Positions 8,221-63,611 of a stretch of 64,000 bases of DNA are shown here, piece by piece. Both the position numbers and the translations under genes were made by a program. The notes beneath the pieces are model-generated. The model saw only the letters and a list, made by a program, of their open reading frames with translations, had not been told where the DNA came from and did no database searches. Source of the DNA: Bacteroides sp. CAG:530 (GTDB taxonomy: Bacteria > Bacteroidota > Bacteroidia > Bacteroidales > Bacteroidaceae); the NCBI GenBank assembly GCA_000434735.1, contig FR881281.1, positions 12,777-76,776 of the forward strand, read 5' to 3'. Positions within the stretch are counted from its first letter, which is position 1; the number at the start of each line of letters is the position of its first letter.

Positions 8221-8248
8221 TCAGACAAAACACACTCATCAATTATAA

Positions 8249-8299: not shown

Positions 8300-8318
8300 T
8301 AAGACAGAATAATTTTTC

Positions 8319-9068: not shown

Positions 9069-9212
9069 AGTTTTGCCTTTTTGTTTGTTCTTAATCTTAA
9101 TACATCTATTAAATGCGGAAACATGCTTTTTAATGCATCGCTATAGCTATAAAGAATGTTAAAGCGAAAATCAGCTACATCCATAACAAGGGAAACAGTG
9201 GACTATATAAAA

Positions 9213-37158: not shown

Positions 37159-37980
37159 GTGAAGCAAGATAAAGAACCAGCCGAGCTAACCTTTTGGGAC
37201 CATTTAGACGAACTGCGCGGCACGTTATTCCGCATAGTAATAGTAGTCGTAGGGTGTATGCTTTTGGCTTTTTGTTTCAAAGACGAACTGTTCGGCATTG
37301 TTTTGGCTCCTAAACATGCCGATTTTTATATCTATCGATTGTTTGATTATATAGGCAGACTTTTTGGCATTTCGGATTTAGAGGCAGAAAACTTTAACGT
37401 GCATCTTATAAACACGCAATTATCCGGACAGTTTATGATGCACATGAGCGTGTCTTTTTACGCCGGAATCATATTAGCGTCTCCTTATATAATATACCAA
37501 CTGTTTAGGTTCGTATCGCCGGCTTTATACGAGAATGAGCGAAAATACTCTTTGCGTGTTGTAACGTGGGGATATTTGCTGTTCATCTTGGGAGTACTAT
37601 TTTGCTACTTCATCGTATTTCCGTTTACGTTCCGCTTCTTGGCGTTGTATCAAGTAAGTTCGGAGGTAGAGAACACCATTCAGCTTGCTTCGTACCTTGA
37701 TACACTAACCATGCTTAGCCTAATGATGGGCATTTTATTCGAAATACCGATATTGTCGTGGCTGTTTGCCAAATTAGGTTTTCTTACAGCTAAGTTCATG
37801 ACAACCTATCGCAAGCACGCCTTAGTCATATCAATGATTGCGGCGGCCATCATCACTCCTACTAGCGATGCGTTCACGATGCTATTGGTTACATTACCGA
37901 TTACAGCCCTTTACGAAGCAAGTATTATCATAGTAAGACATACTAACCCGCAAAAGAAGTTGTCCGAAGATAAAGAATAA
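37159..37980 (+). CDS. tatC: twin-arginine translocase subunit TatC (GTG start)
   Basis: 273 aa, 6 TM, TatC-like; starts 11 nt after tatA. Confidence 0.85.
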   Translation: MKQDKEPAELTFWDHLDELRGTLFRIVIVVVGCMLLAFCFKDELFGIVLAPKHADFYIYRLFDYIGRLFGISDLEAENFNVHLINTQLSGQFMMHMSVSFYAGIILASPYIIYQLFRFVSPALYENERKYSLRVVTWGYLLFILGVLFCYFIVFPFTFRFLALYQVSSEVENTIQLASYLDTLTMLSLMMGILFEIPILSWLFAKLGFLTAKFMTTYRKHALVISMIAAAIITPTSDAFTMLLVTLPITALYEASIIIVRHTNPQKKLSEDKE

Positions 37981-44792: not shown

Positions 44793-47045
44793 ATGAACGT
44801 AAGACACAACATCTTATCCCGATTTTTGGGAGTTTTGACGGTCATGGTATTCGCATTGCTGGGCATTACTTCATGCTCGGAAACAGAAACCACCGACAAA
44901 ACCGATTTTATTCTCTACTATACCAGCATGACCGATATAGGTCCTGGCATGAGTAGCGACATTGCACAACCCAGTTACAAGGGAGCCACACCTTCTGACT
45001 TCACTATCACAGGAGTTACTTTGGACGGACAGGCTTACACAGGCAACTTGTTCGAGATTAATCCTACTAGCGGAACAGTACACATAGAAAGCGATGAAAC
45101 AACCCCAGTAGGTGTTTATAAGATTTCTGTTTCGTGTGTAGCAGGTGGAAGCACTTTCACTTACAACGACATTATCAGTGTAAACTTCTTGAAGCGTGTG
45201 CCCGAAGGCATCACTGTTACTCCGGAAGCATTGGTTGCCGATTTCGCTGACATCATCGATGCCAACAGTACAGTAGAATTACCTACCGCACAGGTTACTA
45301 CAGAACAGAACCATATCTCTATTACAGGATATTCTATCTCAAGCGTTCGCTTAGGCGAGACTATCGTCGACAACAAGAAGAACCCGATGTTCGCTGTTTC
45401 TTCAGACGGAACAATCTCTATCGTTCGCGGCTCTAATGCTATCGAACCGGGACTTTACACTATCGACCTTAAGTTGAACACTGCCGTATCGGGTAGCGAC
45501 AGCGAAGAAGGTTTGTTCGCTAACGCACTTACTGTAAACGTAACTTCTAAGCCGTTGGCTTTGACTTACGCTACAGGTAAATTGGAAGAAGCTACAGAAG
45601 AATCGGGCAACACATCTTTCGTTAGCCAAGTTCCTACATTCAAGGGTTCTACAGACGGTATCGCTTATTCTATAGAAAGCGTTTCGCCAGCTTCAGACAA
45701 ATTCGTTATCGATGCCAAGACTGGCGTTATCTCTGTAGCCGAAGGTCACGGACTTAAGAGCGGCGAAAAATATGTTGTCTCTGTTCGCGTTAAGAACGAC
45801 TATAGCACAGAAGGTGTAGTATTCAACAACGTATTCACACTGAACGTAGTAGAATACATCGAGCCTATTTCTAACTTCGCTTACGAAATGACTCCTGTTA
45901 CAGAACAGGTAGAATTCGAAATTCCTGTAAAAGACGGATTCAAGGGTGCAGAACCTGTATTCGTATTTGAATCTATCTCTGCCGAAGATAAGAACATCGT
46001 ATCATTGGACGGAAAGACCGGAACAATCTCTGCTAAGAAAGGTCACAAACTGACTTTAGGAGAACACAAGTTCACCGTAAAAGCATCAAACGATAAGAAT
46101 AGCGAAACCGCAGAGTTAATTATCAATGTCACTGAAAACCCCAACAAGTTTACATACATCCGCTACGGAAACAACTTGGGATTGACTCCTGCCGAAAACT
46201 ACGCTAACCAGTTCAGACTGGCAGATAAGGAAGAATTCAACGGTAACGCAGAATTTAGCACTCCTGAAACCGACAGTAAAAAGACATTGACTTGGAGCGT
46301 AAGCGGAATTGACGTTGGTGGTACTTCAACTTGGAATAAAGTAAAAATTGACTCTAAAACTGGTAAATTAACTCTCAATGCTCTACCTAATGAACAAAAA
46401 TGTGTTGTAGTATTGGTAAAAGCTACTGCAGGTTCTGGCAAAAAGGCTTATTCTATAACAGTGCCAGTATTCTTCCACAACTCTAATGCTGATAAAACTA
46501 ATGGTAAGATAGAATACACCCCATTCGTTCTGCAAGTAAATCCAAAGAAGGGTGGACGTTCTGTTACTCCTACCATTACTAACACTATAGATATGAGCAA
46601 ATTTGTTTTGGATTTCAGACGTGACCCTATCTATTACAATATTAATGGAGAATATCAAGACGGCACCCCACTTGAATCGGGAGGTACGCAAAAACACACA
46701 AAAGGCTACTATAAACAGTCTCCATTTATGGAAGCCTTGTGGGTACAATGCGGAGCTGGATTAGGAGCCAAAGCCCCCATGGCTTACTTCGATGTAAAGG
46801 GCAATATAAGGGAAAATCATACAGATAAAACATTGGGTTATGTAGACAATGCAGACGGAGACAAGAAATTCTCAGTTGTAATAAACGCTAACCAATGGTG
46901 CCAACGTGCAGAAGATAGCCAGGATATATTAGCTTGGGCAAACGGTGTCGTCATAATGAGCATGACATATAGCGACAACGTCACTAATGTAAACAAAGGA
47001 ACAGAAGTAGGTCCTATCGTAATTTGGCTTGATACTAATTTTTAA
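44793..47045 (+). CDS. PUL-encoded surface lipoprotein, probable surface glycan-binding protein (SGBP)
   Basis: 750 aa with a signal + lipobox (ITSC). It has multiple Ig-like beta-sandwich repeats and no catalytic motifs. Its position next to susC/susD matches PUL SGBPs. Confidence 0.55.
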   Translation: MNVRHNILSRFLGVLTVMVFALLGITSCSETETTDKTDFILYYTSMTDIGPGMSSDIAQPSYKGATPSDFTITGVTLDGQAYTGNLFEINPTSGTVHIESDETTPVGVYKISVSCVAGGSTFTYNDIISVNFLKRVPEGITVTPEALVADFADIIDANSTVELPTAQVTTEQNHISITGYSISSVRLGETIVDNKKNPMFAVSSDGTISIVRGSNAIEPGLYTIDLKLNTAVSGSDSEEGLFANALTVNVTSKPLALTYATGKLEEATEESGNTSFVSQVPTFKGSTDGIAYSIESVSPASDKFVIDAKTGVISVAEGHGLKSGEKYVVSVRVKNDYSTEGVVFNNVFTLNVVEYIEPISNFAYEMTPVTEQVEFEIPVKDGFKGAEPVFVFESISAEDKNIVSLDGKTGTISAKKGHKLTLGEHKFTVKASNDKNSETAELIINVTENPNKFTYIRYGNNLGLTPAENYANQFRLADKEEFNGNAEFSTPETDSKKTLTWSVSGIDVGGTSTWNKVKIDSKTGKLTLNALPNEQKCVVVLVKATAGSGKKAYSITVPVFFHNSNADKTNGKIEYTPFVLQVNPKKGGRSVTPTITNTIDMSKFVLDFRRDPIYYNINGEYQDGTPLESGGTQKHTKGYYKQSPFMEALWVQCGAGLGAKAPMAYFDVKGNIRENHTDKTLGYVDNADGDKKFSVVINANQWCQRAEDSQDILAWANGVVIMSMTYSDNVTNVNKGTEVGPIVIWLDTNF

Positions 47046-47073: not shown

Positions 47074-50000
47074 ATGCATCAATACACTATAAAATCGGCA
47101 AGCAAAAGAGGGTTCATCACCCTCCTTGCCTTGATGATGTCTGTATGTCTGTACGCTCAGCGAATAACACTGAACGGTGTTGTTATAGACGAGACAGACC
47201 AACCGCTTATCGGTGCTACCGTACAAGTTGTGGGTACACCCGATGGTACCATTACCGATTTCGACGGTAACTTCTCTCTGAAAGTTAAGAAAGGAGCAAA
47301 GATTACTTTCTCTTACGTAGGATACTTAAGCAAAACCTTGACTTTCCAAGGACAGAACAAAGTAACCGTAAAACTGGAACCGGACAACAAGACTTTGGAA
47401 GAAGTAGTAGTTGTAGGTTACGGCGCTATGAAACGTAGCGACTTGACAGGATCTCTTTCATCAGTAGGTGGAAAAGACATCGAGGGTTATAAAACAAGTA
47501 ACTTGGCGGGAGCGTTGAGCGGCCAGGTTGCTGGTGTTCAGATTACCCAGACCGATGGTGCGCCGGGTTCTGGCTTCAACATCAACATCCGTGGTGTAGG
47601 TACCTTGACTGGTGATAATGCACCTCTTTATATAGTAGACGGTTTCCAGGTAGACGATATCAGCTATCTGTCTGACTCGGATATCGAAGACATCTCTGTA
47701 TTGAAAGATGCTTCTTCGGCTGCTATCTACGGTTCTCGCGCTGCAAACGGTGTTATCTTGATCTCTACCAAGCAGGGTAAGGAAAGCAAGCCTATCATTA
47801 CTTATAAGGGCTCTGCCACTTACCGTAGCATCGCTAAGAAACTCAATTTGCTTAGCCCGTACGAATTCGTAAAACTGCAGGGTGAAATCAACGATAAATA
47901 CTTGACCTCTTACTTCCAGGAAGGAAATGACTCTGAAGGCAACCCATACCGTTATCAATCGCTCGACGACTTTATCGGTGTAGAAGGTATCGACTGGCAA
48001 GACCAGACTTTCAATCCTACTTGGTCTACCGATCATAACGTAAGCATCATCGGTGGTACTGACAAGTCTAAATATTCAGGCTCTCTGTCGCGCTACGTAG
48101 AAGAAGGTATCTTCAACAACAGTGGTTTCGACAAGACTACCGGAAAGCTTCGTTATACTAACAAGCTCACTAAGAAGGTATCATTGGATGTTACATTCAA
48201 CTATGCCCAGACTAACCGTAAAGGTGTAGGTACATCGGCCGACTCTGGTCGTTTCAACATGTTGGCACAGATTATCAGTGCACGTCCTACCGCAGGTAAC
48301 CGCATGACTGATGACGAATTGCTGAACGCTTTCATCGACCCAACTATGTTGGAAGACGGAAACGATAATATCGCACAGGTAAACCCTGTATTGCAGACTG
48401 AAAACGTTACTAACAAGAAACGCTCTGAATATTGGTCGGCTAACGGTGCTGTAAACTGGGAAATCAGAAAAGGATTGACTTTCCGTACTGCTGCCACTTA
48501 CAACACTACCAACACCAGAACAGACATATTCTACTCTCAGAAGACAAAAGAAGCATACCGTAACGGTGGTAAGCCTTATGGTTCAAGCCAGATGCAACGC
48601 GATTCACGCTGGGTAAACAGTAACACCTTGACTTGGAAACAGAAGATTAAAAAACATCAGTACGATGTAATGTTGGGTCATGAAGTTTCACACAAGACTA
48701 CAGAGTACTTATACGGTCAGGCAATGGATTTCCCATTCGATAACCTGGGCAACAATAACTTAGGTCTTGGAGCTACTCCGAGCAAAGTAAATTCTGATTA
48801 TAGCGACAACTCGCTGCTTTCATTCTTTGCACGTGCCAACTACAACTACGACAACCGCTACTTGTTCACTGCAACAATGCGTGCCGATGGTTCTACAGTA
48901 TTCTCTAAGAACAATAAATGGGGATACTTCCCTTCATTCTCTGCCGCATGGCGTGTTTCTGAAGAAAAGTTCATGAAGAACTTGGATTGGATTTCTAACA
49001 TGAAGTTGCGTTTAGGATGGGGTCTTGTAGGTAACGACCGTATCAAGAACTACTTGTCGCTTGATCTTTATACAGACTCTAAATACGGTGTAGGAAACCA
49101 AATAGTAACTGTATTGACTCCGAAGCAGCTGCGTAACAGTGACTTGAAGTGGGAGGCATCTTCTACTGTCAACGCAGGTATAGACTTGGGCTTCTTCGCT
49201 AACCGCTTGAGCTTGACTGCCGACTTCTTTATCAAGAACACCAAAGACTTGCTGTTAGCACAGTCGTTGGCACACGTAACAGGTTTCGATTCTCAGTGGC
49301 AAAACGTAGGTAAGATTCAGAATAGAGGTATTGAATTAAGTATCAACAGCACAAACATTCAGTCTAAGAACTTCACTTGGCAAACCAACTTCAACATTTC
49401 GTTCATCCATAACGAATTGAAATCGTTGGCATCGGGAGTAGACGCAATGTATGCACGTTCAGGATTCGACGGCAACTTTACTTCTTACGACTACATCGCA
49501 AAAGTAGGCGAATCACTGGGCTTAATATACGGTTATGAATTCGACGGTATCTACCAATACTCTGATTTCAACCAGACTCCTGACGGAAAATGGATATTGA
49601 AAGAAGGTGTAGTAAATAACGCCGGATACAAAACTAAAAATACAAACTTGGAACCGGGATGCGTGAAATACAAAGACCAGGACGGCGACGGTGAAATCAC
49701 TACTAAAGACCGTACGGTAATTGGTAACACACTGCCTAAGTGGTATGGTGGTATCACCAACAATTTCAACTTCAAGGGTGTAGACTTCAGCTTCATGTTC
49801 CAGTTTAACTACGGTAACGATTTATACAACGCAACCCGTCTGTACAGTACTCAGACTCGTTTGGGCCGTCGTAACATGATGGCGGAAGTAGCAGACCGTT
49901 GGTCCGCCTACAAACGCATCTAACCTCGTTCCGAAGACAAACGGTTACATCACCAACGAAGTATATTCACGTTTCGTAGAAGACGGCTCATTCCTCCGTT

Positions 50001-50245: not shown

Positions 50246-51964
50246 ATGAAAAGACATAAATTATATACCTTATTACTGGCAGGACTGGTTACTCTGGGTT
50301 CTACTTCGTGCAGCAACTTCTTGGAAGAAGAAGATAAAGTAGAAGTAGAAAAGAAGAACTACCTGACCAACGCCGACGAAGCACAGAACGTACTTTTAGG
50401 CGTATACCGCACTAACGTGAGAGAAGCGATGTATGGCCGCTACTTGTCTATCCACTTCAGCTTGGGTACCGATATGGAACAAGTAGAAGGTAGCAATACG
50501 GAAAACTTCCGTATTGTTCCTACCAACGCTTATCCCGCTACACAATCGGAAGTACAGCAGGCATGGCAATCGCTGTATATGGGAATTTATAACGCAAACG
50601 ATTTCTTGGAACAGCTGTCACTGCACATCGACAGCTACAGCCAGTCGGATAAAAAGAAAGCATTGATCTATGCAGCCGAAGCACGTTCATTGAGAGCTCT
50701 TTACTACTTCGAGTTAGTTCGCCGTTGGAACCGTGTGCCTTTGTTCACTAATACAGAACAATCTCACCAGAAACCGGAAACATTTGTACAGGCAGAGCCG
50801 GCTGAAGTATATAAGTTCATAGAAGAAGACTTGAAATATGCTGCCGAAATATTGCCGTATGCAACAGACGACGATGTACGTAGCGACAATTCTTACCGTT
50901 TCTCTAAGGGTGCCGCATTAGGATTGCTGGCTAAGGTATACGCTACATGGGCAGGATATCCTGTAAACGATACATCAAAATGGAAAGACGCTGCCGAAAC
51001 TGCCGCACAGCTTATCAACTCTGGTAAGCATGACTTGCTGCCCGACTTCGAGACATTGTGGGAAAACACCGCCAACGGCGTATGGGATCCTACAGAAAGT
51101 CTTATCGAAATCTCATTCTACTCGCCTACAGCTGCCGGTGGCGCAAACGACCCTTGCGGATACATAGGCAAATGGAACGGTGTACCGGCTTCGCAGATCT
51201 CGGGTACACGCGGAAGCTGTAAAGGTAACGTGAAGGTAATCTATCCGTTCTCATATAAATGGCAGCAGATAGCAGAGCAGAAAGGCGACAAGCGTTGGGC
51301 TTTGTCAATCTCTAACTTCCAGTACAAACCTACCAAGACATTCTTCGGTAAAGCTGGACAGTATACTATAGGTGATGAAAAAGTAACGCTTACTGCAGAA
51401 GAAGCAAGTCTTAATCCTGATGTAGACCAGAAGAACAAGCAATACTTCACTCCTGCCAAATGGGATTTGGAGAAATATACTAACGCTGCCAACAAGCTGA
51501 TAAACGACGACCGCTCTAACACTAACTGGTATGTATTGCGCTACGCCGATGTCTTACTTATCTATGCAGAAGCGCTGAACGAATGGAAGGGACATCCTAC
51601 TAACGAAGCATACGCCGCTATCAATAAGGTTCGTCGTCGTGGATTCGGTAACCCGAGCAACACATCCGTTTGCGACTTGCCTGCCGCTCTTAGCCAGGAA
51701 GCATTCCGCCAGGCAGTACGTGATGAGCGTGCATACGAATTGGCATTCGAAGGACACCGTCGTCTTGACTTGGTGCGTTGGGGTATCTATTACCAGACAA
51801 TCACCAAAACTTACAAAGACCTCCTGAACTGGTGGTCGAGCGACAACGAAAACTTCAACTATGCCATTTACCAATACACCATCGAAGGCAAGCATGAGCT
51901 GATGCCTATCCCGCAACGCGACATGGACTTGTGTCCGCAATTCAAGCAGAACCCGAAGTGGTAA
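50246..51964 (+). CDS. SusD/RagB-family outer-membrane glycan-binding lipoprotein
   Basis: 572 aa with a lipobox (STSC) and TPR-like SusD architecture. It lies immediately downstream of susC. Confidence 0.9.
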   Translation: MKRHKLYTLLLAGLVTLGSTSCSNFLEEEDKVEVEKKNYLTNADEAQNVLLGVYRTNVREAMYGRYLSIHFSLGTDMEQVEGSNTENFRIVPTNAYPATQSEVQQAWQSLYMGIYNANDFLEQLSLHIDSYSQSDKKKALIYAAEARSLRALYYFELVRRWNRVPLFTNTEQSHQKPETFVQAEPAEVYKFIEEDLKYAAEILPYATDDDVRSDNSYRFSKGAALGLLAKVYATWAGYPVNDTSKWKDAAETAAQLINSGKHDLLPDFETLWENTANGVWDPTESLIEISFYSPTAAGGANDPCGYIGKWNGVPASQISGTRGSCKGNVKVIYPFSYKWQQIAEQKGDKRWALSISNFQYKPTKTFFGKAGQYTIGDEKVTLTAEEASLNPDVDQKNKQYFTPAKWDLEKYTNAANKLINDDRSNTNWYVLRYADVLLIYAEALNEWKGHPTNEAYAAINKVRRRGFGNPSNTSVCDLPAALSQEAFRQAVRDERAYELAFEGHRRLDLVRWGIYYQTITKTYKDLLNWWSSDNENFNYAIYQYTIEGKHELMPIPQRDMDLCPQFKQNPKW

Positions 51965-52211: not shown

Positions 52212-53534
52212 ATGAAAAAACTGATTGCATTTGCTGCGGCAGCCATTGCTCTTGCCTCATGCCAGACTCAACCAAAAGAAGATTACAGCTGGATTAAAAA
52301 CGGACTTGATGTAGCACAACAGCAACTGATGCTTGCTGCTCACGAAGCTGAAGGAACAGGTAAATTGCCTCGTACTACTTATCAGAGTTACGACATGAAC
52401 TTCCTCTGCGAACAGTTGGAAAGAGATTCTGCAACATTTAAAGACTCATTGCGTCAGTCTGCTCCTGCCGAAAAAGTAGGAAAGATGAAACTCTGCACAG
52501 TGAAAGACTGGACAAGCGGATTCTTCCCAGGTTCTTTATGGTATGCATACGAATTGACAGGAAATGACTCGTTGAAAACAGAGGCTATAGAATATACTAA
52601 CTTGCTGAACCCAGTACGCTATTATAGAGGTACTCACGACTTGGGCTTCATGATTAACTGCAGCTATGGTAACGCACTTCGTCTTACCAAGAACGATACA
52701 ATTGCTGCAGTAATGCACGAAACCGCCGATAACCTCTGCAGCCGATTCAACGAAGGTATCGGTTGTATCCGTTCATGGGACTTCGGTACATGGAATTTCC
52801 CGGTTATCATCGACAACATGATGAACCTCGACTTGCTCTTCACTGTAAGCAAACTTACAAACGACGATAAATATAAAAACGTTGCTATCACCCACGCTAA
52901 CACTACCATGAAAAATCACTTCCGTCCGGACTACACTTCATGGCACGTAGTAAGCTATAACAATGACGGTACAGTAGAACGCAAACAGACTTTCCAAGGA
53001 AAGAACGACGACTCTGCATGGAGCCGCGGCCAGGGATGGGGCGTATACGGATATACAGCTTGCTTCCGTGAAACAAACGATTCTACTTACTTGAAATTCG
53101 CATGCAATATTGCAGATATGATTATGAGCCGTGTTAAGACAGACGACGCTATTCCTTACTGGGATTATATGGCTCCTGTAACTCCTGAAACTCCGCGCGA
53201 CGCATCGGCTGCAGCTGTTACAGCTTCTGCCATGTTAGAACTTAGCACATTCGTTGCCGACGGACAGAAATACTTTGACTACGCAGAAAAGATTCTGAAG
53301 AGTTTGTCGAGCGACGCTTATTTGGCTAAGCCAGGCACAAACGGCGGCTTCATCTTGATGCACTCTACAGGTTCTTTGCCTAACGGAAGTGAAATCGATG
53401 TTCCTTTGAACTATGCTGACTACTACTACTTGGAAGCTCTGAAGAGATACATGGATTTAAAGCACATTTCATACAAAATACATGGATTTGAAGCACATTT
53501 CATACAAAGACCTTTAATAATAAGTAATTCATGA
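52212..53534 (+). CDS. glycoside hydrolase family 88 (unsaturated glucuronyl hydrolase), lipoprotein; C-terminus altered by a 31-bp tandem duplication
   Basis: 440 aa with a lipobox (LASC) and GH88 alpha6/alpha6 motifs (SGFFPGSLWYAYELTG, RGQGWGVYGYTA). The last ~20 codons are read through a duplicated segment, and the stop overlaps the next gene's ATG (ATGA). Confidence 0.8.
   Translation: MKKLIAFAAAAIALASCQTQPKEDYSWIKNGLDVAQQQLMLAAHEAEGTGKLPRTTYQSYDMNFLCEQLERDSATFKDSLRQSAPAEKVGKMKLCTVKDWTSGFFPGSLWYAYELTGNDSLKTEAIEYTNLLNPVRYYRGTHDLGFMINCSYGNALRLTKNDTIAAVMHETADNLCSRFNEGIGCIRSWDFGTWNFPVIIDNMMNLDLLFTVSKLTNDDKYKNVAITHANTTMKNHFRPDYTSWHVVSYNNDGTVERKQTFQGKNDDSAWSRGQGWGVYGYTACFRETNDSTYLKFACNIADMIMSRVKTDDAIPYWDYMAPVTPETPRDASAAAVTASAMLELSTFVADGQKYFDYAEKILKSLSSDAYLAKPGTNGGFILMHSTGSLPNGSEIDVPLNYADYYYLEALKRYMDLKHISYKIHGFEAHFIQRPLIISNS
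53447..53508 (+). repeat. 31-bp tandem duplication (atacatggattt[a/g]aagcacatttcatacaaa x2, 30/31 identical) at the 3-prime end of the GH88 gene
   Basis: The copies lie at 53447-53477 and 53478-53508. 31 nt gives a +1 frame change, so the tail reads ...RYMDLKHISYKIHGFEAHFIQRPLIISNS* instead of ...RYMDLKHISYKDL*. Confidence 0.9.
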
Positions 53535-55528
53535 AATTAAAACATATAGCATTAAGCATAGTAGCTTGTATCGGTATGGCACAAGCTACTGCACAAGAGC
53601 TTAAAACGGAAGTTTTCTCTTTGCTGAACCTTAATTATCCAGGTTTGGAGAAAGTTAAGTCTTTGCACGAATCAGGAAAAGACAAAGATGCTGCACAGGC
53701 ATTGCTCGATTATTACCGCGCACGTACCAACATCAAGACTCCTGATATTAACCTGAATAAGATTACTATCGGTAAGGAAGAACAGAAGTGGGCCGACGAC
53801 GCTATGGAGCATACATTCTTCGTACATAAAGGCTACCAGCCATCGTTCAACTACGGAAAGGACATCAACTGGAAATACTGGCCTGTACAAGATAACGAAT
53901 TGCGTTGGCAGCTTCACCGTCACAAATGGTTTACTCCGATGGGTAAAGCATATCGCGTGTCGGGCGACGAGAAGTATGCTAAAGAATGGGCCGCTCAATA
54001 TATCGACTGGATTAAGAAAAACCCGTTGGTATCTATCGACAAGAAAGAATATGAACTGACAAGCAACGAAACCCTGAAAGGCGATGTAGAAAACATGCGT
54101 TTCGCTTGGCGTCCGCTGGAAGTTAGTAACCGCCTGCAAGACCAGACTACACAGTTCCAGTTGTTCTTGCCGTCTCCTTCGTTCACTCCGGAATTCCTTA
54201 CCGAGTTCCTTGTAAACTACTACAAGCACGCTGTTCATATCCTGAACAACTACTCAGACCAAGGAAACCACTTGCTGTTCGAAGCACAGCGTATCATCTA
54301 CGCCGGAACATTCTTCCCAGAATTCAAGGACGCTTCTGCATGGAGACAGAGCGGTATCGGTATCTTGAACCGCGAAATCAAAGTTCAGGTTTACGATGAC
54401 GGTGGACAGTTCGAGCTCGACCCGCACTATCACTTGGCATCAATCAACATTTTCTGCAAGGCTTTGTACATAGCAGATATGAACGGATTCCGCAATGATT
54501 TCCCGCAGAGCTACATGGATACAGTAGAAAACATGATTATGTTCTACCTGAACATCTGTTTCCCCGACTATACCAATCCTTGCTTCAGCGACGCTAAGCT
54601 GACAACAAAGAGAGAAATGGTCAAGAACTACAAAGAATGGAGCAAATTGTTCCCAAAGAATAAGGCTATCTTATACTTCGCAAGCGAAGGCAAAAAAGGA
54701 GAACTTCCTGCATACTTGTCTAAAGGTTTCTTGAAATCAGGTTTCTTTGTATTCAGAAACTCTTGGGGTGAAGACGCAACTCAGATGGTAGTTAAGGCTG
54801 GTCCGAAAGCATTCTGGCACTGTCAGCCCGATAACGGTACATTCGAGATGTGGTTCAACGGAAAGAATCTGTTCCCCGACTCTGGTTCTTATGTATACGC
54901 CGGAAGCAAGGAAGTAAACGAAGAACGTAATTGGTTCCGCCAAACTGCGGTTCACAACACACTTACTCTGAACAACAAGAATCTTGACCAGACAAATTCT
55001 AAGACTCTGTTGTGGCAGCCCGAAGGCGATATTCAGACACTTGTTACTGAAAACCCGAGCTACAAGAACCTTACTCACCGTCGTAGCATCTTCTTTGTAA
55101 ACAACACATATTTCGTGATTGTAGACGAAGCTATCGGTGCAGCAAAAGGCTTTGTAAACTTGCACTACCAAATGCCGAAAGGTAAGATTGCCAATAGTCG
55201 TGAAGACATGACTTTCATTACCGAGTTTGAAAGCGGAAGCAACATGAAGTTGCAGTGCTTCGGTCCTGACGGCATGAGCATGAAGAAAGAAGAAGGTTGG
55301 GCATCTACAGCTTACCGCAAGAAATTCAAACGTATGAATGTTTCATTCAACGTTAAGAAAGAAAACGATGCGGTACGTTACATCACCATCATCTATCCGA
55401 TGAAAGACAGCGCAGATGCGCCTGCTATGTCGGCTAAGTTCAAGACTAAGAAATTCGACGGTAAGAACTTGGAAGTTGAAGTAAAAGTAGGTGGCAAGAA
55501 ACAATCTTTGAAATATACCTTGCAATAA
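53531..55528 (+). CDS. heparinase III (PL12-family heparin/heparan-sulfate lyase)
   Basis: 665 aa with a signal peptide. Its size and motifs match HepIII-type enzymes (LNLNYPGLEKVK, HRHKWF, WHCQPDN, HRRSIFFVN). Confidence 0.8.
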   Translation: MKLKHIALSIVACIGMAQATAQELKTEVFSLLNLNYPGLEKVKSLHESGKDKDAAQALLDYYRARTNIKTPDINLNKITIGKEEQKWADDAMEHTFFVHKGYQPSFNYGKDINWKYWPVQDNELRWQLHRHKWFTPMGKAYRVSGDEKYAKEWAAQYIDWIKKNPLVSIDKKEYELTSNETLKGDVENMRFAWRPLEVSNRLQDQTTQFQLFLPSPSFTPEFLTEFLVNYYKHAVHILNNYSDQGNHLLFEAQRIIYAGTFFPEFKDASAWRQSGIGILNREIKVQVYDDGGQFELDPHYHLASINIFCKALYIADMNGFRNDFPQSYMDTVENMIMFYLNICFPDYTNPCFSDAKLTTKREMVKNYKEWSKLFPKNKAILYFASEGKKGELPAYLSKGFLKSGFFVFRNSWGEDATQMVVKAGPKAFWHCQPDNGTFEMWFNGKNLFPDSGSYVYAGSKEVNEERNWFRQTAVHNTLTLNNKNLDQTNSKTLLWQPEGDIQTLVTENPSYKNLTHRRSIFFVNNTYFVIVDEAIGAAKGFVNLHYQMPKGKIANSREDMTFITEFESGSNMKLQCFGPDGMSMKKEEGWASTAYRKKFKRMNVSFNVKKENDAVRYITIIYPMKDSADAPAMSAKFKTKKFDGKNLEVEVKVGGKKQSLKYTLQ

Positions 55529-55604: not shown

Positions 55605-57209
55605 ATGAAAACAGTATCTCAAGCAGCATTGTGCCTTCCTTTAGTGGCACTGAATTTAACAAGCTGCGCAACCCAAAAAAAAGAAGAGCCGAAACAGCCG
55701 AACATTATTTTTATAATGACCGACGACCATACCACTCAGGCTATGTCTTGCTACGGAGGAAATCTTATCCAGACTCCAAACATGGACCGCATCGCCAATG
55801 AAGGTATCCGTTTCGACAACTGCTATGCAGTAAACGCCCTTTCAGGTCCGTCAAGAGCCTGCGTACTGACAGGTAAATTCAGCCACATGAATGGCTTTAC
55901 AGACAACGCTTGTAAATTCAACGGCGATCAGCAGACATTCCCGAAACTATTGCAGAAAGCAGGATACGAAACTTCTATCATCGGAAAATGGCATCTTATC
56001 TCTGAACCACAAGGATTCGACTACTGGAGTGTCTTAAGCGGACAAGAAGAACAAGGTGACTACTACGATCCTGACTTCTGGGAAAACGGTAAACACATAA
56101 CAGAAAAAGGTTATGTAACCGATATTATCACAGACAAGGCGATAAAATGGATGGAAGGACGCGACAAGAGCAAACCGTTCTGCATGATGTTCCACGAAAA
56201 AGCGCCTCATCGCGACTGGATGCCGGCTCCACGTCATTTAGGTATATTCAACGACGTTACTTTCCCCGAACCAGAGAATCTGTTCGATGACTACAAGGGA
56301 AGACAAGCTGCAGCCGAACAAGACATGTCGATTGCCAAGACTCTGAGAGAAGACTGGGACTTGAAACTTCTTACTCACGACGAAATAGTAAACGGAAAGT
56401 CAAGACTGCGCGATGTCTATATGCGTATGCCGGAAGATGTTCAGCACAAATGGGATTCTGTTTATGCACCACGTATCGCAGAATATCGCAAAGGCAACTT
56501 GAAAGGCAAAGAATTGATAAGCTGGAAATATCAGCAATACATGCGCGATTATCTGGCAACCGTTCTTTCTGTAGACGAAAACATCGGACGATTGCTTGAT
56601 TATCTGAGCGAAACAAATCAGTTGGACAACACTATCATAGTTTATACTTCCGACCAAGGCTTCTTCTTGGGAGAACACGGATGGTTCGACAAGCGATTCA
56701 TGTACGAAGAATGCCAGCGTATGCCGCTTATCATACGTTACCCCAAAGCTATTAAGGCAGGTTCTGTAAGCTCGGCTATCAGTATGAACGTTGACTTCGC
56801 TCCTACATTCCTCGACTTTGCAGGTGTTGATATACCGGAAGATATTCAGGGTAAATCATTGAAGCCTATCCTCGAAAACGAAGGAAAGACTCCTGCCGAT
56901 TGGCGCAAGGCTGCCTACTATCATTATTATGAATATCCGGCAGAACACTCAGTTAAACGTCACTACGGAATACGCACACAAGACTTTAAGTTGATTCATT
57001 TCTATAATGACATCGATGTTTGGGAAATGTACGACATGAAGAAAGATCCGCATGAGATGAACAACATCTTTGGCAACCCTGACTATGCCGACAAGCAGCA
57101 AGAACTGATGCAGCTGTTGAAAGAGACTCAGGAACAATATAAAGATACCGACCCCGACGAAAAAGAAAAAGTACTTTTCAAGGGCGACCGTAGATATATG
57201 AAACGATAA
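55605..57209 (+). CDS. S1-family sulfatase, Ser-type (formylglycine motif S-G-P-S-R)
   Basis: 534 aa with a lipobox (LTSC). The sulfatase signature is NALSGPSRACVLTG, and the metal-binding motifs are IFIMTDDHT and GKWHL. Confidence 0.9.
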   Translation: MKTVSQAALCLPLVALNLTSCATQKKEEPKQPNIIFIMTDDHTTQAMSCYGGNLIQTPNMDRIANEGIRFDNCYAVNALSGPSRACVLTGKFSHMNGFTDNACKFNGDQQTFPKLLQKAGYETSIIGKWHLISEPQGFDYWSVLSGQEEQGDYYDPDFWENGKHITEKGYVTDIITDKAIKWMEGRDKSKPFCMMFHEKAPHRDWMPAPRHLGIFNDVTFPEPENLFDDYKGRQAAAEQDMSIAKTLREDWDLKLLTHDEIVNGKSRLRDVYMRMPEDVQHKWDSVYAPRIAEYRKGNLKGKELISWKYQQYMRDYLATVLSVDENIGRLLDYLSETNQLDNTIIVYTSDQGFFLGEHGWFDKRFMYEECQRMPLIIRYPKAIKAGSVSSAISMNVDFAPTFLDFAGVDIPEDIQGKSLKPILENEGKTPADWRKAAYYHYYEYPAEHSVKRHYGIRTQDFKLIHFYNDIDVWEMYDMKKDPHEMNNIFGNPDYADKQQELMQLLKETQEQYKDTDPDEKEKVLFKGDRRYMKR

Positions 57210-57235: not shown

Positions 57236-58864
57236 ATGGACAGAAGACGATTTTTAAAAACTACAGGATGGTCTTTCTTAGGTATTGCAGCATCGGGTAG
57301 CTTGCTCGAAGCTTGCACACCGGGCAGTAAAGAAGCTAAAAAAATAATGCCGTCGGCCAGCGACTATAAAATGTTCTGGGGCGACTTACATAACCATTGT
57401 AACATCACTTACGGACACGGCGACATGCGCGACGCTTTCGAAGCGGCTAAGCAGCAACTCGACTTTGTAAGTGTTACCCCACATGCTATGTGGCCTGATA
57501 TCCCAGGAGCCGACGACCCACGTTTGGCTTGGGTTATCGACTATCATACTGAAGCCTTCAAACGTCTGCGTGCCGGAGGATACGAAAAGTATGTAGCAAT
57601 GACCAACGAATACAATAAAGAAGGCGAGTTCCTTACTTTCATTGGTTATGAAGCACACAGCATGCAGCACGGCGACCACGTTGCCCTAAACTACGACCTC
57701 GACGCACCGCTTGTAGAATGTACTTCTATCGAAGATTGGAAACAGAAAGCCAAAGGTCATAAGGTATTCGTTACTCCGCACCACATGGGCTATCAAACAG
57801 GATACCGCGGATACGACTGGAACTTCTTTACCGAAGGCGATGTAACTCCGTTCGTAGAAATGTATTCTCGTCACGGATTGGCAGAAACAGATCAGGGCGA
57901 CTATCCTTATCTGCACGATATGGGACCTCGCCAGTGGGAAGGTACCATCCTTTGCGGATTGGAAAGAGGACACAAGTTCGGTATCATGGGTTCTACAGAC
58001 CAGCACTCAGGTTATCCTGGTAGCTACGGTGACGGCCGAATCGGTGTTTTGTCTCCGTCACTGCACAGAGAAAACATCTGGGAAGCACTGCGCAACCGCC
58101 ACGTTTGCTGCGCTACCGGCGATAAGATTCTCATCGACTTCCGCCTGAACGACGCGTTTATGGGAGACGTTACTAAGGGAAACAGCCGCCGCATCTACCT
58201 AAATGTAGAAGGAGAAAGCTGCATAGACTATGTAGACGTTATCAAGAACGGACGCTTGTTGGCACGCCTCAACGGTCCGATGACTCCGGTAATGCCGAAG
58301 GAAGATACCGTACGTTGCAAAGTGAAAGTACAGTTCGGATGGAACCGCGAAGAGAAATACGTAGCTTGGAAAGGAAACTTGTCAATCGATAAGGGTCGTA
58401 TCGTAAGCGTTACTCCTTGCTTTAGAGGTGCAGCGTTCACATCGCCTCAGCCGGGAGAAAAAGAGTTCCACACTCACGTAAACAAGATTTTGAGCGTAAG
58501 CGAAAAAAATACTGAGTTGGAAATGTACTCTTCTAAGAACCCCAACACCACTACCGATGCTACACAGGCAGTAATTCTGGAACTGGAAATGCCGAAAGAC
58601 GGAGTGCTTACAGCCGAATTCAACGGCAAGAAGTTCAGCCACACACTGGGCGAATTGTTAGAAGGCTCACGCACTCACTTCATGATAGGATGGTTGAGCG
58701 AGGCTATTTTGTTTAACCGCGCAATGCCTGAAAGCTGCTACACTGTAGAGCACTACATGGAAGATACCACACCAGAAAGAGATACTGACTATTATTACAT
58801 CCGTGTACGCCAGCGCGACCAGCAATGGGCTTGGAGTTCACCAATCTGGGTAGAAAGAACATAA
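57236..58864 (+). CDS. Tat-signal PHP-domain (DUF3604/CehA-like) metal-dependent hydrolase of unknown specificity
   Basis: 542 aa. The N-terminus, MDRRRFLKTTGWSFLGIAASGSLLEAC, is a canonical twin-arginine motif (RRxFLK) with a possible lipobox. The PHP motifs are GDLHNHCNITYGHGD, FVSVTPHA, GYEAHS, TPHHMGY and STDQHSGYPG. Confidence 0.7.
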   Translation: MDRRRFLKTTGWSFLGIAASGSLLEACTPGSKEAKKIMPSASDYKMFWGDLHNHCNITYGHGDMRDAFEAAKQQLDFVSVTPHAMWPDIPGADDPRLAWVIDYHTEAFKRLRAGGYEKYVAMTNEYNKEGEFLTFIGYEAHSMQHGDHVALNYDLDAPLVECTSIEDWKQKAKGHKVFVTPHHMGYQTGYRGYDWNFFTEGDVTPFVEMYSRHGLAETDQGDYPYLHDMGPRQWEGTILCGLERGHKFGIMGSTDQHSGYPGSYGDGRIGVLSPSLHRENIWEALRNRHVCCATGDKILIDFRLNDAFMGDVTKGNSRRIYLNVEGESCIDYVDVIKNGRLLARLNGPMTPVMPKEDTVRCKVKVQFGWNREEKYVAWKGNLSIDKGRIVSVTPCFRGAAFTSPQPGEKEFHTHVNKILSVSEKNTELEMYSSKNPNTTTDATQAVILELEMPKDGVLTAEFNGKKFSHTLGELLEGSRTHFMIGWLSEAILFNRAMPESCYTVEHYMEDTTPERDTDYYYIRVRQRDQQWAWSSPIWVERT

Positions 58865-58865
58865 A

Positions 58866-59819
58866 ATGGAAAATAAAAGATTCGCTATAGGAATAGACCT
58901 TGGCGGAACTTCTGTGAAATACGCCTTGACTGATGCCGAAGGCGTATTTCATTTTGAGGGGAAGATTCCGTCGAAAGCCGATATCTCGGCAGAAGCCGTT
59001 ATCGGACAATTGAGCTTTGCCGCACAGCAGTGTATGGATGCAGCAGCAAAAAACAATATTACAGTGGCTGGCATCGGTATTGGTACACCGGGCATTGTAG
59101 ACGAAACAAACCGTAAGGTACTTGGTGGAGCCGAAAACATTGTAGGCTGGGAGAATGTAAACTTAGCAGACGTAATGGAAGAGGCAACCGGACTCAAGGT
59201 TCAGGTGGGCAATGATGCCAACATGATGGGACTGGGCGAAACTCTGTTCGGAGCCGGAAAAGGAATGAAGAACGTGGTATTCGTAACCGTAGGTACAGGC
59301 ATCGGAGGTGCGGTAGTTATAGACGGCAAGCTATTTAACGGATTCGCCAACCGAGGTACAGAATTGGGTCACGTGCCCTTGATAGCCAACGGTGAAGAAT
59401 GCGCTTGCGGCTCTGTAGGCTGCTTAGAGCATTATGCCTCTACATCGGCTTTGGTACGCCGCTTCTGCAAACGCGCTAAAGAAGCCGGACGCATATTTTC
59501 TGAAGAGGTAAACGGCGAAGTTATAGTACGCCTTTACAAAGAAAACGATCCGATAGCCGTTGAAAGCCTCAACGAGCATTGCGACTTCTTAGGACATGGC
59601 ATCGGAGGATTCATCAACATCTTCAGTCCGCAACTGATAGTAGTGGGCGGAGGATTATCAGAAGCCGGCGATTTCTATATTCAGAAAGTCAGCGAAAGAG
59701 CCATGCGATACGCTATCCCCGACTGCGCCGTAAACACCCGCATCATGGCTGCCACATTAGGCAATAAAGCCGGATGCTTAGGAGCTGCCGCTTTAATTTT
59801 TCAACAGTCAGAACAATGA
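58866..59819 (+). CDS. ROK-family sugar kinase (glucosamine/N-acetylglucosamine kinase-like)
   Basis: 317 aa. The motifs are the ATP-binding IGIDLGGT, ROK-type GHVPL and the zinc motif CACGSVGCLE. The start is 1 nt after the upstream stop, and the stop overlaps the next ATG. Confidence 0.85.
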   Translation: MENKRFAIGIDLGGTSVKYALTDAEGVFHFEGKIPSKADISAEAVIGQLSFAAQQCMDAAAKNNITVAGIGIGTPGIVDETNRKVLGGAENIVGWENVNLADVMEEATGLKVQVGNDANMMGLGETLFGAGKGMKNVVFVTVGTGIGGAVVIDGKLFNGFANRGTELGHVPLIANGEECACGSVGCLEHYASTSALVRRFCKRAKEAGRIFSEEVNGEVIVRLYKENDPIAVESLNEHCDFLGHGIGGFINIFSPQLIVVGGGLSEAGDFYIQKVSERAMRYAIPDCAVNTRIMAATLGNKAGCLGAAALIFQQSEQ

Positions 59820-61090
59820 AAAAGAAAATACTACAACTTACCCTAATCATGATGTTCTGGTTTACCATTTCGTTCATCACGAACATCTTGGGACCACTTA
59901 TACCGGACATCATCAATAACTTCCACCTGAGCGACTTGGCTATGGCTGGGTTCATTCCCACCTCGTTCTTCATTGCTTATGCGTTGATGTCTATCCCTGC
60001 CGGTATCCTGATAGACCGTTTCGGCGAGAAACCCGTATTATTCTGCGGATTCCTCATGCCGTTCGTAGGAACTATCTTGTTTGCCATGCTGCATACTTAT
60101 CCGGCATTGCTTGCATCATCGTTCATCATCGGACTGGGTATGGCCATGCTGCAAACGGTTATCAACCCGCTGCAACGCGCTGTGGGAGGCGAAGAGAACT
60201 ACGCATTTATAGCCGAGTTGGCACAATTCGTATTCGGAGCCGCTTCGTTTGTCAGCCCGTTGGTTTACACATACCTGATTCACGAACTCGACCCGTCTAT
60301 CTACAGCGAAGGCAAGAATTGGCTTATCGACCTATTGGCTCGCGTCACTCCGTCCGATTTGCCTTGGGTTTCACTGTACTGGATATTCACAATCATCCTA
60401 TTGGCCATGCTGATAGCTGTAGCCGTATCTAAGTTTCCGAAGATAGAACTGAAAGAAGACGAAAAGAGCGGCTCGCGTTCATCGTACACAGAGCTATTTA
60501 AGAAGCCTTCTGTATGGTTGTTTTTCTTAGGTATATTTTGCTACGTAAGTACAGAGCAAGGTTCTTCTATCTTTATGAGTACTTTCCTTGAACAATATCA
60601 CGGTATAAACCCACAAACTGATGGAGCACAAACCGTTAGTTTGTTCTGGGGACTGATGACTGTGGGATGTTTCTTCGGTATGATTCTGCTGAAGTTCATA
60701 GACAGCAAGCGTCTGCTTCAGATGTCGGGAATAATCACCATAGTATTGCTGGCATGCGCTTTGTTCGGAAGCAAACAGCTTTCTGTAATGGCATTCCCCG
60801 CTATCGGATTCAGTATTTCTATGATGTACTCTATAGTATTTTCATTGGCTCTCAACTCCGTATCCGAACATCACGGCTCGTTTGCCGGAATTCTTTGCTC
60901 GGCTATTGCCGGAGGTGCCATCGGTCCGCTTATCATCAGTAGCATAGCCGATCATACCTCACTGCAAGTCGGAATGTCGGCCCTGTTTGTATTCGTTGCC
61001 TACATTACCTTCATCGGTTTCTGGGCTAACCCGATTATAAACAACAAGACTATCAGCCTGAAAGATTTATTCCGCAAGAGAAGTCTGTAA
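59816..61090 (+). CDS. MFS transporter (FucP/glucose-galactose-type sugar permease)
   Basis: The start is taken at the internal MKKKILQLT (the ATGA overlap with the ROK stop). It has 12 predicted TM helices and an MFS sugar-porter-like N-terminal motif. Confidence 0.85.
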   Translation: MKKKILQLTLIMMFWFTISFITNILGPLIPDIINNFHLSDLAMAGFIPTSFFIAYALMSIPAGILIDRFGEKPVLFCGFLMPFVGTILFAMLHTYPALLASSFIIGLGMAMLQTVINPLQRAVGGEENYAFIAELAQFVFGAASFVSPLVYTYLIHELDPSIYSEGKNWLIDLLARVTPSDLPWVSLYWIFTIILLAMLIAVAVSKFPKIELKEDEKSGSRSSYTELFKKPSVWLFFLGIFCYVSTEQGSSIFMSTFLEQYHGINPQTDGAQTVSLFWGLMTVGCFFGMILLKFIDSKRLLQMSGIITIVLLACALFGSKQLSVMAFPAIGFSISMMYSIVFSLALNSVSEHHGSFAGILCSAIAGGAIGPLIISSIADHTSLQVGMSALFVFVAYITFIGFWANPIINNKTISLKDLFRKRSL

Positions 61091-61115: not shown

Positions 61116-63611
61116 ATGAAAAGAAATACAGTCTTTTTCGTTTTATTGCTCACATTTGCCTTTATCGCACGCCTCCAGGCACAAATGCCTGCCTCACTTT
61201 ACGAAGAATGGCGCAAGACATCTTATCCGGCAGGTGACGCAGTAGTATCTACCAATCCGTCTCCGCTGCTGTGGAAATCGGACAAATATTGGGAAAAGCG
61301 AAAAGTAACTTATAATGTATACCTGAGCCGCAACGCTGCGTTTCCTAAAGCCGAAACGCAAAGCAGCATGAATCAGCGTTATTGCTTCTACAACCCGCAC
61401 CGTAAATTAGAAAGCGGTAAATGGTATTGGAAATACGAAACCGTGGAAAACGGAAAGGTATCATCGAGCGAGGTTTATTCGTTCATCGTACCCGAATCTG
61501 CCGACGGACTCGTTACCCCTACTGCCAAAGAGTTCCGCAACAATATCAGCAAAAGCCATCCGCGTGTAATGAACTACGGACGCTCTATGGAAGATATTCA
61601 TCGCGACGCTCCACAGCACAGACTTTACAAAAGCATTATAAATACTGCTAAAGAAGCTGCCGCAAAACAAATTTATCGTGGCGCAGTGACCGACCCTAAC
61701 CCGGCAACTGCTCGCCGCCTTAACCAAAAGGCAGGTAAAGAAGTATCTCTGTATCATGAGCTGCTTGAAGGTTATACGCTATCGGCAGATAATGACATGA
61801 AAGATGCCTTGCTGAAACGTACCGATGTATTGCTGTCATGGCCTACTAACGACTTGTTAGGCTCTAAAGTCCTCACAGCTTTGGCTTTGGGGTACGACAT
61901 GCTGTACGATGAGCTGACAGCCGAAACCAAGCAACAGATACTTACTACCATCGACAAGCAGTTTAAAGAAGGACTGGCACGTTGGCCCGGATTTACCGAA
62001 GCACGTCAGGTAGAGAATCACTTCTGGCAGATGGAATTGGCAGGCAACTTTACAGCAGCCTTGGCTACTCTTGGCGAACTCGAATCGGCTACCGAAATGC
62101 TTGACTATACATACGGCTTGTTCATAGCTCGTTTCCCTAACCTTGCTACACAAGACGGTGGTTGGAACGAAGGCGAAGGCTATTATAGCGTAAACCAAAC
62201 AGCCGTGGTAGATATGGCATTATTGCTGAAAAAGTTGGGTGGCATTGATATCTTCAAGATGGGATGGTATCGTAATCTACCCGACTACTTTACTTACTTC
62301 TCGCCAGTGGCATCGCCTGTTTCAGGATTCGGCGATATGCACGACCGCGTAGAAACCGGAGGATTGAAGGGTCGTTCAGAAATGCTCACCATAGGTTGCG
62401 AAGAGAACAATCCGTACGCTTTATACCGCTTTTTCCAGTCGGTACGTCCCGTAGAATCATTCTTCGGAGCCACAACCGACGAGAAATACTGGAGAAAACC
62501 GTTGGCAAAAACAGAGCCTTGGTATCAGATAGTAAACAATATCTCTGTTGCCCCCAAGCGAGCTAAAGCTCCCACCAATCAGCCTACCGACAAGGTATTC
62601 TACGGAGTAGGAGCAGCAGCAATGCACTCTTGTCTGGCAGACCCAGCAAAAGATGTTACCGTATTCTTCCGCTCGTCGCCCTTCGGTTCCAAGGGTCACG
62701 CTCATGCCGACCAGAACAGCTTTAACATCTCACGTCACGGAGAACGTCTGTTCTACCCCACAGGATATTACACATCGTTTGCCGACATGCACTCGCTTAC
62801 TTCGTACAAGCATACCCGTGCTTGCAACTCTATCTTGATTAACGGCTACGGACAAGCATTCGGTCACGAAGGCTATGGATGGATTAAACGCCATATAGAA
62901 GGAGAAAACATGTCGTACGTATGCGGTGAAGCAGGAGAAGCTTATAAGAAGACTACCGACAAGCAGTTTGCCGATTTCATGAAGGAAAAAGGAATAAAGC
63001 AAGACGCACACTTCGGCATGGGAGACACTCCGATGAAGAAATTCGAGCGCCACGTTGTATTTGTACGTCCCGACGTAGTTGTGATATACGATGTTCTCGA
63101 AGCCGATGAAGCTTCAGAATGGAGCTTGTTGTTACACACCATGCGTCCGTCTACCGTCGACAAAAACAAGTTGACCGTAGAGACTAGCCGAAGCCATGCC
63201 GAAGCGCAAGTATTCGGAAGCACAGCGGTTAAGGGAAGCGTTACAAACAAATTCTTCTCTCCTGCCAACGACTTCAAGAAGAAATACCAGAACGGCACCC
63301 CCGACCAGTATCACGCTACTTTCTGCAACACCGAGAAAGTAAAGCAGATGCGTTACCTCACCATTATAAACATGTGTGACAAAGGTGCCAAGGTTACCGC
63401 ACTGAAGTCTTCAGGAAAAGGAAAATGGAAAATTGGCGACCTTCAGATAGAAGCCGAAATGGATGCCAATAAAGCACCTCACGCCACAATTAAGTATGGC
63501 AAAGAGCAACTCTCTATCGGTGCAGAAGAAACAACTCTTAACGGAACAAAGGGAACTGTAAGCAGCAAAAACCAAATGCCGACAGGTAGCTATAATTATC
63601 TGAAGCGATAA
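61116..63611 (+). CDS. heparinase II/III-like polysaccharide lyase, large (possibly PL15-type)
   Basis: 831 aa with a signal peptide. It has an N-terminal alpha/alpha-toroid and a C-terminal Hepar_II_III-like beta-sandwich with GHAHADQNSF. It is the last gene of the PUL. Confidence 0.65.
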   Translation: MKRNTVFFVLLLTFAFIARLQAQMPASLYEEWRKTSYPAGDAVVSTNPSPLLWKSDKYWEKRKVTYNVYLSRNAAFPKAETQSSMNQRYCFYNPHRKLESGKWYWKYETVENGKVSSSEVYSFIVPESADGLVTPTAKEFRNNISKSHPRVMNYGRSMEDIHRDAPQHRLYKSIINTAKEAAAKQIYRGAVTDPNPATARRLNQKAGKEVSLYHELLEGYTLSADNDMKDALLKRTDVLLSWPTNDLLGSKVLTALALGYDMLYDELTAETKQQILTTIDKQFKEGLARWPGFTEARQVENHFWQMELAGNFTAALATLGELESATEMLDYTYGLFIARFPNLATQDGGWNEGEGYYSVNQTAVVDMALLLKKLGGIDIFKMGWYRNLPDYFTYFSPVASPVSGFGDMHDRVETGGLKGRSEMLTIGCEENNPYALYRFFQSVRPVESFFGATTDEKYWRKPLAKTEPWYQIVNNISVAPKRAKAPTNQPTDKVFYGVGAAAMHSCLADPAKDVTVFFRSSPFGSKGHAHADQNSFNISRHGERLFYPTGYYTSFADMHSLTSYKHTRACNSILINGYGQAFGHEGYGWIKRHIEGENMSYVCGEAGEAYKKTTDKQFADFMKEKGIKQDAHFGMGDTPMKKFERHVVFVRPDVVVIYDVLEADEASEWSLLLHTMRPSTVDKNKLTVETSRSHAEAQVFGSTAVKGSVTNKFFSPANDFKKKYQNGTPDQYHATFCNTEKVKQMRYLTIINMCDKGAKVTALKSSGKGKWKIGDLQIEAEMDANKAPHATIKYGKEQLSIGAEETTLNGTKGTVSSKNQMPTGSYNYLKR

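Follow-up and report, generated by a model that had tools for sequence, protein, structure and literature searches.

The BT4655 orthologue of Bacteroides sp. CAG:530, a putative non-S1 sulfamidase of a heparin/heparan sulfate utilisation locus

BT4655 and its orthologue in Bacteroides sp. CAG:530

N-sulfation is a hallmark modification of heparin and heparan sulfate (HS); gut Bacteroides must remove the N-sulfate to use these glycans. To our knowledge, the sole characterised sulfamidases are human SGSH (deficient in Sanfilippo A) and Phep_2826 of Pedobacter heparinus; both are formylglycine S1_8 enzymes. Here we examine a 542-residue protein encoded in a 64,000-nucleotide stretch of Bacteroides sp. 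CAG:530 (contig FR881281.1; this whole stretch is called the window below). The protein, hereafter the target, lies in a heparin/HS polysaccharide utilisation locus (PUL), and sequence comparison identifies it as the orthologue of BT4655 of B. thetaiotaomicron VPI-5482 (PUL BT4652-BT4675).

Deletion of bt4655 worsens growth by about 50% on heparin, by about 25% on HS and by 0% on desulfated heparin (Cartmell et al. 2017 in PNAS, via PMC10154612). The defect scales with content of N-sulfoglucosamine (GlcNS), which is left in the spent medium of the mutant and not in that of the wild type (PMC10154612); a further account of BT4655 (PMC9067506) agrees. Luis, Yates and Cartmell, in their 2023 review (PMC10154612), call BT4655 a "novel sulfatase family" that lacks biochemical characterisation and is not listed in SulfAtlas. 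The neighbouring sulfatase BT4656 has special adaptations for binding 6S-GlcNS (PMC10154612), which suggests that BT4655 acts after it. The P. heparinus PUL uses the S1_8 sulfamidase Phep_2826 (PMC10154612). A preliminary description of the window, made from the sequence alone, proposed a non-S1 sulfamidase for GlcNS exported by the twin-arginine translocation (Tat) pathway. This agrees with the knockout genetics of BT4655, but the idea is not new, as it was published for BT4655 in 2017.

Relatives were collected from one genome per species, giving 80 loci, all from Bacteroidales, with homologues 76-89% identical to the target; the closest sampled genome is Phocaeicola faecicola (89%). The B. 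thetaiotaomicron locus (L011) has, upstream of its homologue, a gene with about 99% identity to the BT4656 crystal sequence 5G2V; the homologue itself (L011:10001-11626) is therefore BT4655. It aligns with the target at 85% identity and 92% similarity over 542 residues with no gaps. Both proteins are 542 residues long with a Tat signal, both genes occupy the slot between an S1_11 6-O-sulfatase and a ROK kinase, and the PUL order from the hybrid two-component system (HTCS) regulator to PL15 matches. The two systems differ in the gap to the ROK gene (about 160 bp in B. thetaiotaomicron, 1 bp in the window) and in the PUL regulator, which is frameshifted in the window.

The preliminary description had taken the B. 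thetaiotaomicron slot to hold an S1 sulfamidase and had presented the target as an anomaly. This premise is wrong, since the slot holds BT4655 and the synteny is common to the related loci: all 80 carry a target homologue in the heparin/HS PUL slot. The target is the canonical occupant of that slot. In 74 of 76 loci the gene immediately upstream is an S1_11 sulfatase, and in 60 of 74 the one immediately downstream is ROK; the window itself has the order GH88 - PL12 - S1_11 sulfatase - target - ROK - major facilitator superfamily (MFS) transporter. Of all PUL proteins the target is also the best conserved, with a median identity of 82.8%, compared with 59-78% for the neighbouring proteins. Two Bacteroides pyogenes loci (L039 and L040, around 8000-10000) keep the target, ROK and lyases; the upstream S1_11 6-O-sulfatase is absent and PL12 directly precedes the target homologue.

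It is fairly likely that the target is a periplasmic PHP metallohydrolase, exported by Tat and probably lipid-anchored, that cleaves the sulfamate of GlcNS after 6-O-desulfation, with the resulting glucosamine (GlcN) passing to the MFS transporter and the ROK kinase. The open reading frame (ORF), signal motif, fold, ligand conservation, orthology and synteny behind this reading come from the present analysis and the knockout phenotype from the literature; from these we infer the chemistry, metal identity, lipidation and order of steps.

Export signal, fold and predicted metal site

The target gene and its regions are as follows.

57236..58864, plus strand: target coding sequence, 542 residues, ATG start; BT4655 orthologue, putative non-S1 GlcNS N-sulfatase/sulfamidase
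57236..57316, plus strand: signal region, residues 1-27, with twin-arginine motif, hydrophobic stretch and probable lipobox ending in Cys27 (LLEA, then C)
57365..58123, plus strand: predicted PHP-superfamily (beta/alpha) barrel, residues ~44-296, with a long inserted helix at residues 95-126
58124..58861, plus strand: predicted C-terminal all-beta region, residues ~297-542, with immunoglobulin/fibronectin type III-like beta-sandwich domains

The N-terminus reads MDRRRFLKTTGWSFLGIAASGSLLEAC. It starts with D-R-R-R-F-L-K, which fits the Tat consensus (S/T)-R-R-x-F-L-K, followed by a hydrophobic region. Among 23 close homologues, R3, R4 and F6 never vary and conservation of Cys27 reaches at least 90%; the 542-residue frame with its RRRFLK motif, as originally described, is thus borne out. 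The twin-arginine motif, hydrophobic stretch and probable lipobox suggest Tat export and possibly lipid anchoring at Cys27, facing the periplasm. The NCBI name for target orthologues is 'Tat pathway signal sequence' only.

The target has no match to Pfam Sulfatase (PF00884) and no C/S-x-P/A-x-R formylglycine motif in profile and motif scans; for this reason its sequence places it outside the S1 sulfatases. Only two sequence-family models touch it in Pfam and NCBIfam scans, and neither gives it a function. Pfam DUF3604 (PF12228) scores 21.3 bits against a cut-off of 20.4, and the match covers just residues 111-147 on 37 of 591 profile positions; most target homologues carry precomputed PF12228 matches. 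The NCBIfam CehA/McbA metallohydrolase model (NF038032) scores 59.6 bits over residues 127-366, below its curated cut-off of 80. CehA/McbA proteins are known for carbamate hydrolysis. Pfam PHP (PF02811) is not matched at E <= 1. Of the family checks suggested in the preliminary description, DUF3604 therefore yields a short match while CehA/McbA and PHP yield none above threshold.

Since PF02811 is unmatched, membership of the PHP superfamily rests on structure and on a profile-to-PDB match. A PDB search with the single target sequence finds no relative; the family profile finds TM0559 (E=8e-8) and 3E38 (E=8e-4). An AlphaFold model built from a 75-sequence alignment reaching down to 28% identity has pLDDT 92.4 and pTM 0.91; the sole segment with pLDDT <50 is residues 1-27, so that only the signal peptide is disordered. 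It replaces an earlier model from 23 close homologues (pLDDT 76, one significant Foldseek match). The predicted fold is the distorted (beta/alpha)7 barrel of the PHP superfamily, and its structural neighbours score as follows.

3E38: 19.4
TM0559 (2ANU): 19.2
PsfC: 16.1
EndoQ: 14.5
RNase AM, PolC, HisK and YcdX: 8.6-10

The predicted metal ligands are H52, H54, H83, E139, H183, H213, D255 and H257. They map onto the PHP motifs as HxH (H52/H54), the 'TDH' histidine (H83), the glutamate (E139), the motif IV histidine (H183), the 'MHG' histidine (H213) and DxH (D255/H257), and they align to counterparts in TM0559 and 3E38. H52/H54, H83, E139, H182/H183, H213 and D255-x-H257 are invariant or >=90% conserved in the 75 sequences, in line with the metal-hydrolase motifs that the preliminary description had recognised.

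Members of the PHP superfamily (3E38, which is BVU_3505, TM0559, PsfC, EndoQ, RNase AM, histidinol-phosphate phosphatase, YcdX and Pol III/X) are 13-19% identical to the target. In contrast to them, the target carries a Tat export signal and its proposed substrate is a sulfamate rather than a phosphoester. The predicted metal site also departs from theirs. In PHP enzymes the SxDG aspartate after HxH is a third-metal ligand; this position is Tyr59 in the target and tyrosine in 63 of the 75 sequences. His61 follows it, chiefly in the glycosaminoglycan (GAG) clade, and His182 is an extra invariant histidine. R212 (which adjoins ligand H213), Y193, D228, D266 and T58 are invariant in the Bacteroidales clade, common to the GAG-locus homologue P0122 (described below) and rare in cytoplasmic relatives; this distribution makes them candidate GlcNS-recognition residues.

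Proposed reaction and alternative explanations

In the proposed pathway, the target would fold and load its metal centre in the cytoplasm, forming the His/Asp/Glu site of the PHP superfamily, probably bi- or trinuclear. Tat would be a sensible route, because the protein must fold and load its metals before export. The folded protein would then be exported, probably lipid-anchored at Cys27, and would work in the periplasm. Late in heparin/HS breakdown, lyases, a 2-O-sulfatase and GH88 would first free sulfated glucosamine, and the adjoining S1_11 enzyme would take off the 6-O-sulfate. The target would hydrolyse the N-S (sulfamate) bond of GlcNS to give GlcN and sulfate; by analogy with phosphoester hydrolysis in PHP enzymes, a metal-activated water or hydroxide would attack the sulfur. 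The co-transcribed MFS transporter would import GlcN and the ROK kinase would phosphorylate it.

The proposed reaction is that of the S1_8 N-sulfamidases (Phep_2826; human SGSH, PDB 4MHX), as is the pathway position after 6-O-desulfation in the periplasm or lysosome. The S1 enzymes have an alkaline-phosphatase fold and a formylglycine nucleophile, whereas the target is predicted to have a PHP barrel and has neither. The shared function would then be analogous, by non-orthologous displacement.

No further S1 sulfatase, no S1 sulfamidase and no target paralogue is encoded within the window. In the related loci, the extra S1 sulfatases near target homologues are mostly 2-O or 6-O types. About 24 loci have an S1_9-like enzyme that scores 210 bits to BT1596 and 75-102 bits to S1_8 enzymes and SGSH; a true orthologue of BT1596 (808 bits) and an S1_11-like paralogue also occur. 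A 651-residue S1_8-like sulfatase lies within 7 kb of the target homologue in four of the 80 loci.

L048:15296-17323, minus strand: S1_8-like sulfatase, 4-7 kb downstream of target homologue
L067:16414-18195, plus strand: S1_8-like sulfatase, 4-7 kb downstream of target homologue
L071:16676-18628, minus strand: S1_8-like sulfatase, 4-7 kb downstream of target homologue
L074:15441-17441, plus strand: S1_8-like sulfatase, 4-7 kb downstream of target homologue

Across the four loci the proteins range over 594-676 residues, and their best solved relatives are 9BBA ('S1_8C', 229 bits) and SGSH (90 bits). Each may act as an S1 sulfamidase or may have some other GAG sulfatase activity alongside a BT4655-type gene. 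Strict mutual exclusivity of the target gene and S1_8 sulfatases, which the preliminary description had put forward as a check, is consequently rejected. Most of the 80 loci lack a nearby S1_8 gene; this is consistent with the target supplying the sulfamidase activity.

A rather unlikely alternative is that the target is a periplasmic PHP metallohydrolase needed for GlcNS use whose substrate is not the N-S bond, so that GlcNS builds up indirectly in the mutant; it might hydrolyse a phospho- or acyl-substituent or handle another intermediate. This would fit the chemistry of the characterised structural neighbours, all phosphoesterases or nucleases, and the closest named sequence family (CehA/McbA, below cut-off). 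The varied sugar-catabolic contexts of the wider family, which are without sulfatases, point the same way, and no enzymology for BT4655-type proteins came up in our literature search. However, neither heparin nor HS carries phosphate or any other evident substrate for a PHP enzyme, the growth defect tracks GlcNS content with GlcNS specifically accumulating, no alternative sulfamidase is found in the window or in most of the 80 loci, and the target is under the tightest constraint in the PUL.

The order of steps might also be different. The target would then be a sulfamidase on N-sulfated di- or oligosaccharides, acting before GH88 or before 6-O-desulfation; the C-terminal beta-sandwich region (residues 297-542) of the model could give extra subsites or glycan binding, and the review (PMC10154612) describes the stage at which BT4655 acts as unknown. 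We think this improbable: the mutant accumulates the GlcNS monosaccharide, the adaptation of BT4656 to 6S-GlcNS implies that the N-sulfate is still present at that step, and the analogous S1_8 enzyme of P. heparinus acts last, on GlcNS (PMC10154612). The view closest to the preliminary description, that this genome is unusual and a PHP enzyme has displaced a canonical Bacteroides S1 sulfamidase, draws on nothing except the contrast with the P. heparinus PUL and its Phep_2826. It is scarcely tenable, being refuted by the presence of the target gene in the slot in B. thetaiotaomicron and all 80 sampled loci; BT4655 is, moreover, described as not formylglycine-dependent (PMC11980591).

Several points weigh against GlcNS sulfamate cleavage by the target. 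Every characterised PHP enzyme among its structural neighbours is a phosphoesterase or nuclease, and our literature search brought up no earlier case of a PHP fold cleaving S-N or S-O bonds. The same search, in which Cartmell 2017 was known through the review, found no enzymology of BT4655 or a homologue; it also found no structure of BT4655 and nothing relevant on DUF3604. Recombinant BT4655 has been purified, with no activity reported in the portion of PMC11980591 available to us. Loss of bt4655 has only a partial effect (about 50%), which could be indirect, and in four of the 80 loci the S1_8-like sulfatase could supply sulfamidase activity. Finally, the family, taken as a whole, is not one of sulfamidases, since its distant members are for the most part cytoplasmic and encoded outside GAG loci. 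In the alignment, roughly 60 of 66 distant relatives have no signal peptide, and the contexts seen include GH127 with an Opp-type ABC transporter; an aldo-keto reductase with AP_endonuc_2 and an M20 peptidase; and a GFO/IDH/MocA oxidoreductase with a sugar ABC transporter.

The surrounding locus, the wider family and significance

A Pfam scan of the neighbouring genes shows a complete heparin/HS PUL around the target, which the preliminary description had likewise placed in a heparin PUL. The genes around the target are listed below.

36924..37148, plus strand: tatA, upstream of the HTCS gene
37159..37980, plus strand: tatC; the HTCS start (37985) is 5 bp away
37985..42056, plus strand: HTCS regulator (BT4663 equivalent), split into two ORFs
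42563..44767, plus strand: PL12 (Pfam scan)
44793..47045, plus strand: BT4661-like surface glycan-binding protein (Pfam scan)
47074..49923, plus strand: SusC (Pfam scan)
50246..51964, plus strand: SusD (Pfam scan)
52212..53534, plus strand: GH88 (Pfam scan)
53531..55528, plus strand: second PL12 (Pfam scan)
55605..57209, plus strand: S1_11 N-acetylglucosamine (GlcNAc)/GlcNS-6-O-sulfatase, BT4656 orthologue (Pfam Sulfatase and SGSH_C)
58866..59819, plus strand: ROK-family sugar kinase, BT4654 equivalent (Pfam ROK, 1.5e-63)
59774..61090, plus strand: MFS transporter, BT4653 equivalent (Pfam MFS_1)
61116..63611, plus strand: PL15-like heparin lyase, BT4652 equivalent (Pfam DUF4962 and Hepar_II_III_C)

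The S1_11 sulfatase scores 1024 bits to PDB 5G2V (GlcNAc-6-sulfatase) and has the Ser-type formylglycine motif SGPSR at residue 80. The target starts 26 bp past its stop codon, and the ROK start codon lies 1 bp past the target stop. The longest MFS ORF overlaps the ROK 3' end by 46 nt (59774-59819). The true MFS start is probably an internal methionine (MKKKILQ..., about 59816) that would overlap the stop codon of ROK, an arrangement pointing to tight coupling of target, ROK and MFS.

A perfect 13-bp tandem duplication splits the HTCS gene into two ORFs, 37985..40087 and 40098..42056; the repeated unit is TTTCAGATACTGA, with copies at 40062 and 40075 (span 40062-40087). Removal of one copy gives a 1,352-residue HTCS ORF that aligns full-length to orthologous HTCS genes, and a 96%-identical metagenome contig (L089) carries a single-copy, intact allele. 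Either the duplication is a mutation specific to this strain that inactivates the regulator and would leave the PUL non-inducible, or it reflects an error of assembly or sequencing.

The tatA and tatC genes, which encode the export machinery required by the target's signal peptide, sit between ruvA (36089..36688) and the PUL regulator, and directly abut the latter as first described. No TatC sequence is found upstream of the HTCS gene in L055 or L071, the two loci examinable. The adjacency is therefore rejected as a functional link to the PUL and is probably incidental.

An exhaustive HMMER search gives 4,015 family representatives at E <= 1e-3. One of them, P0122 (47% identity, Sec lipoprotein signal), is found in an independent GAG locus (L081) together with two PL8 lyases, GH88 and a TonB receptor; the locus keeps a homologue-ROK-MFS-SIS module and has an S1 sulfatase nearby. 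The picture suggested by these comparisons is of a GAG-locus clade that is an exported offshoot of a mainly cytoplasmic metalloenzyme family, one branch of which would have been recruited to the periplasm.

Other architectures occur in the family. A fusion of GNAT and target (P0024; L086:335-2821) was considered as a Rosetta-stone clue and rejected. Its target copy is 85% identical, and the junction reads ...HYPQINN followed by SGSLLGSC...; here the Tat n-region has given way to unrelated sequence, and contig coverage is 5x, which makes a chimera or 5' truncation likely. A GNAT gene also lies immediately upstream of a distant Tat-bearing homologue (L088:4810-6402). In P0182 (1,327 residues, 33% identity) the BT4655-like region forms the C-terminal 500 residues; the N-terminal ~820 residues have no Pfam match.

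The window adds one more orthologue to a functional hypothesis that has been in print since 2017. The contributions of the present analysis are the fold assignment, a ligand map suited to mutagenesis, the candidate specificity residues, and the observation that the GAG clade is an exported offshoot of its family. The chances appear evenly balanced that BT4655-type proteins are true sulfamidases with a PHP multinuclear centre in which Tyr59 replaces the aspartate, founding a fifth class with a distinct mechanism and recruited to the periplasm through Tat from a mostly cytoplasmic family of about 4,000 representatives. If so, the PHP metal centre would represent a new way of catalysing S-N hydrolysis, and these proteins would form a fifth sulfatase class missing from SulfAtlas. 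The BT4655-type gene would then be a marker for HS N-desulfation in microbiomes, and further sulfated or sulfamated sugars might be substrates for other branches of the family.

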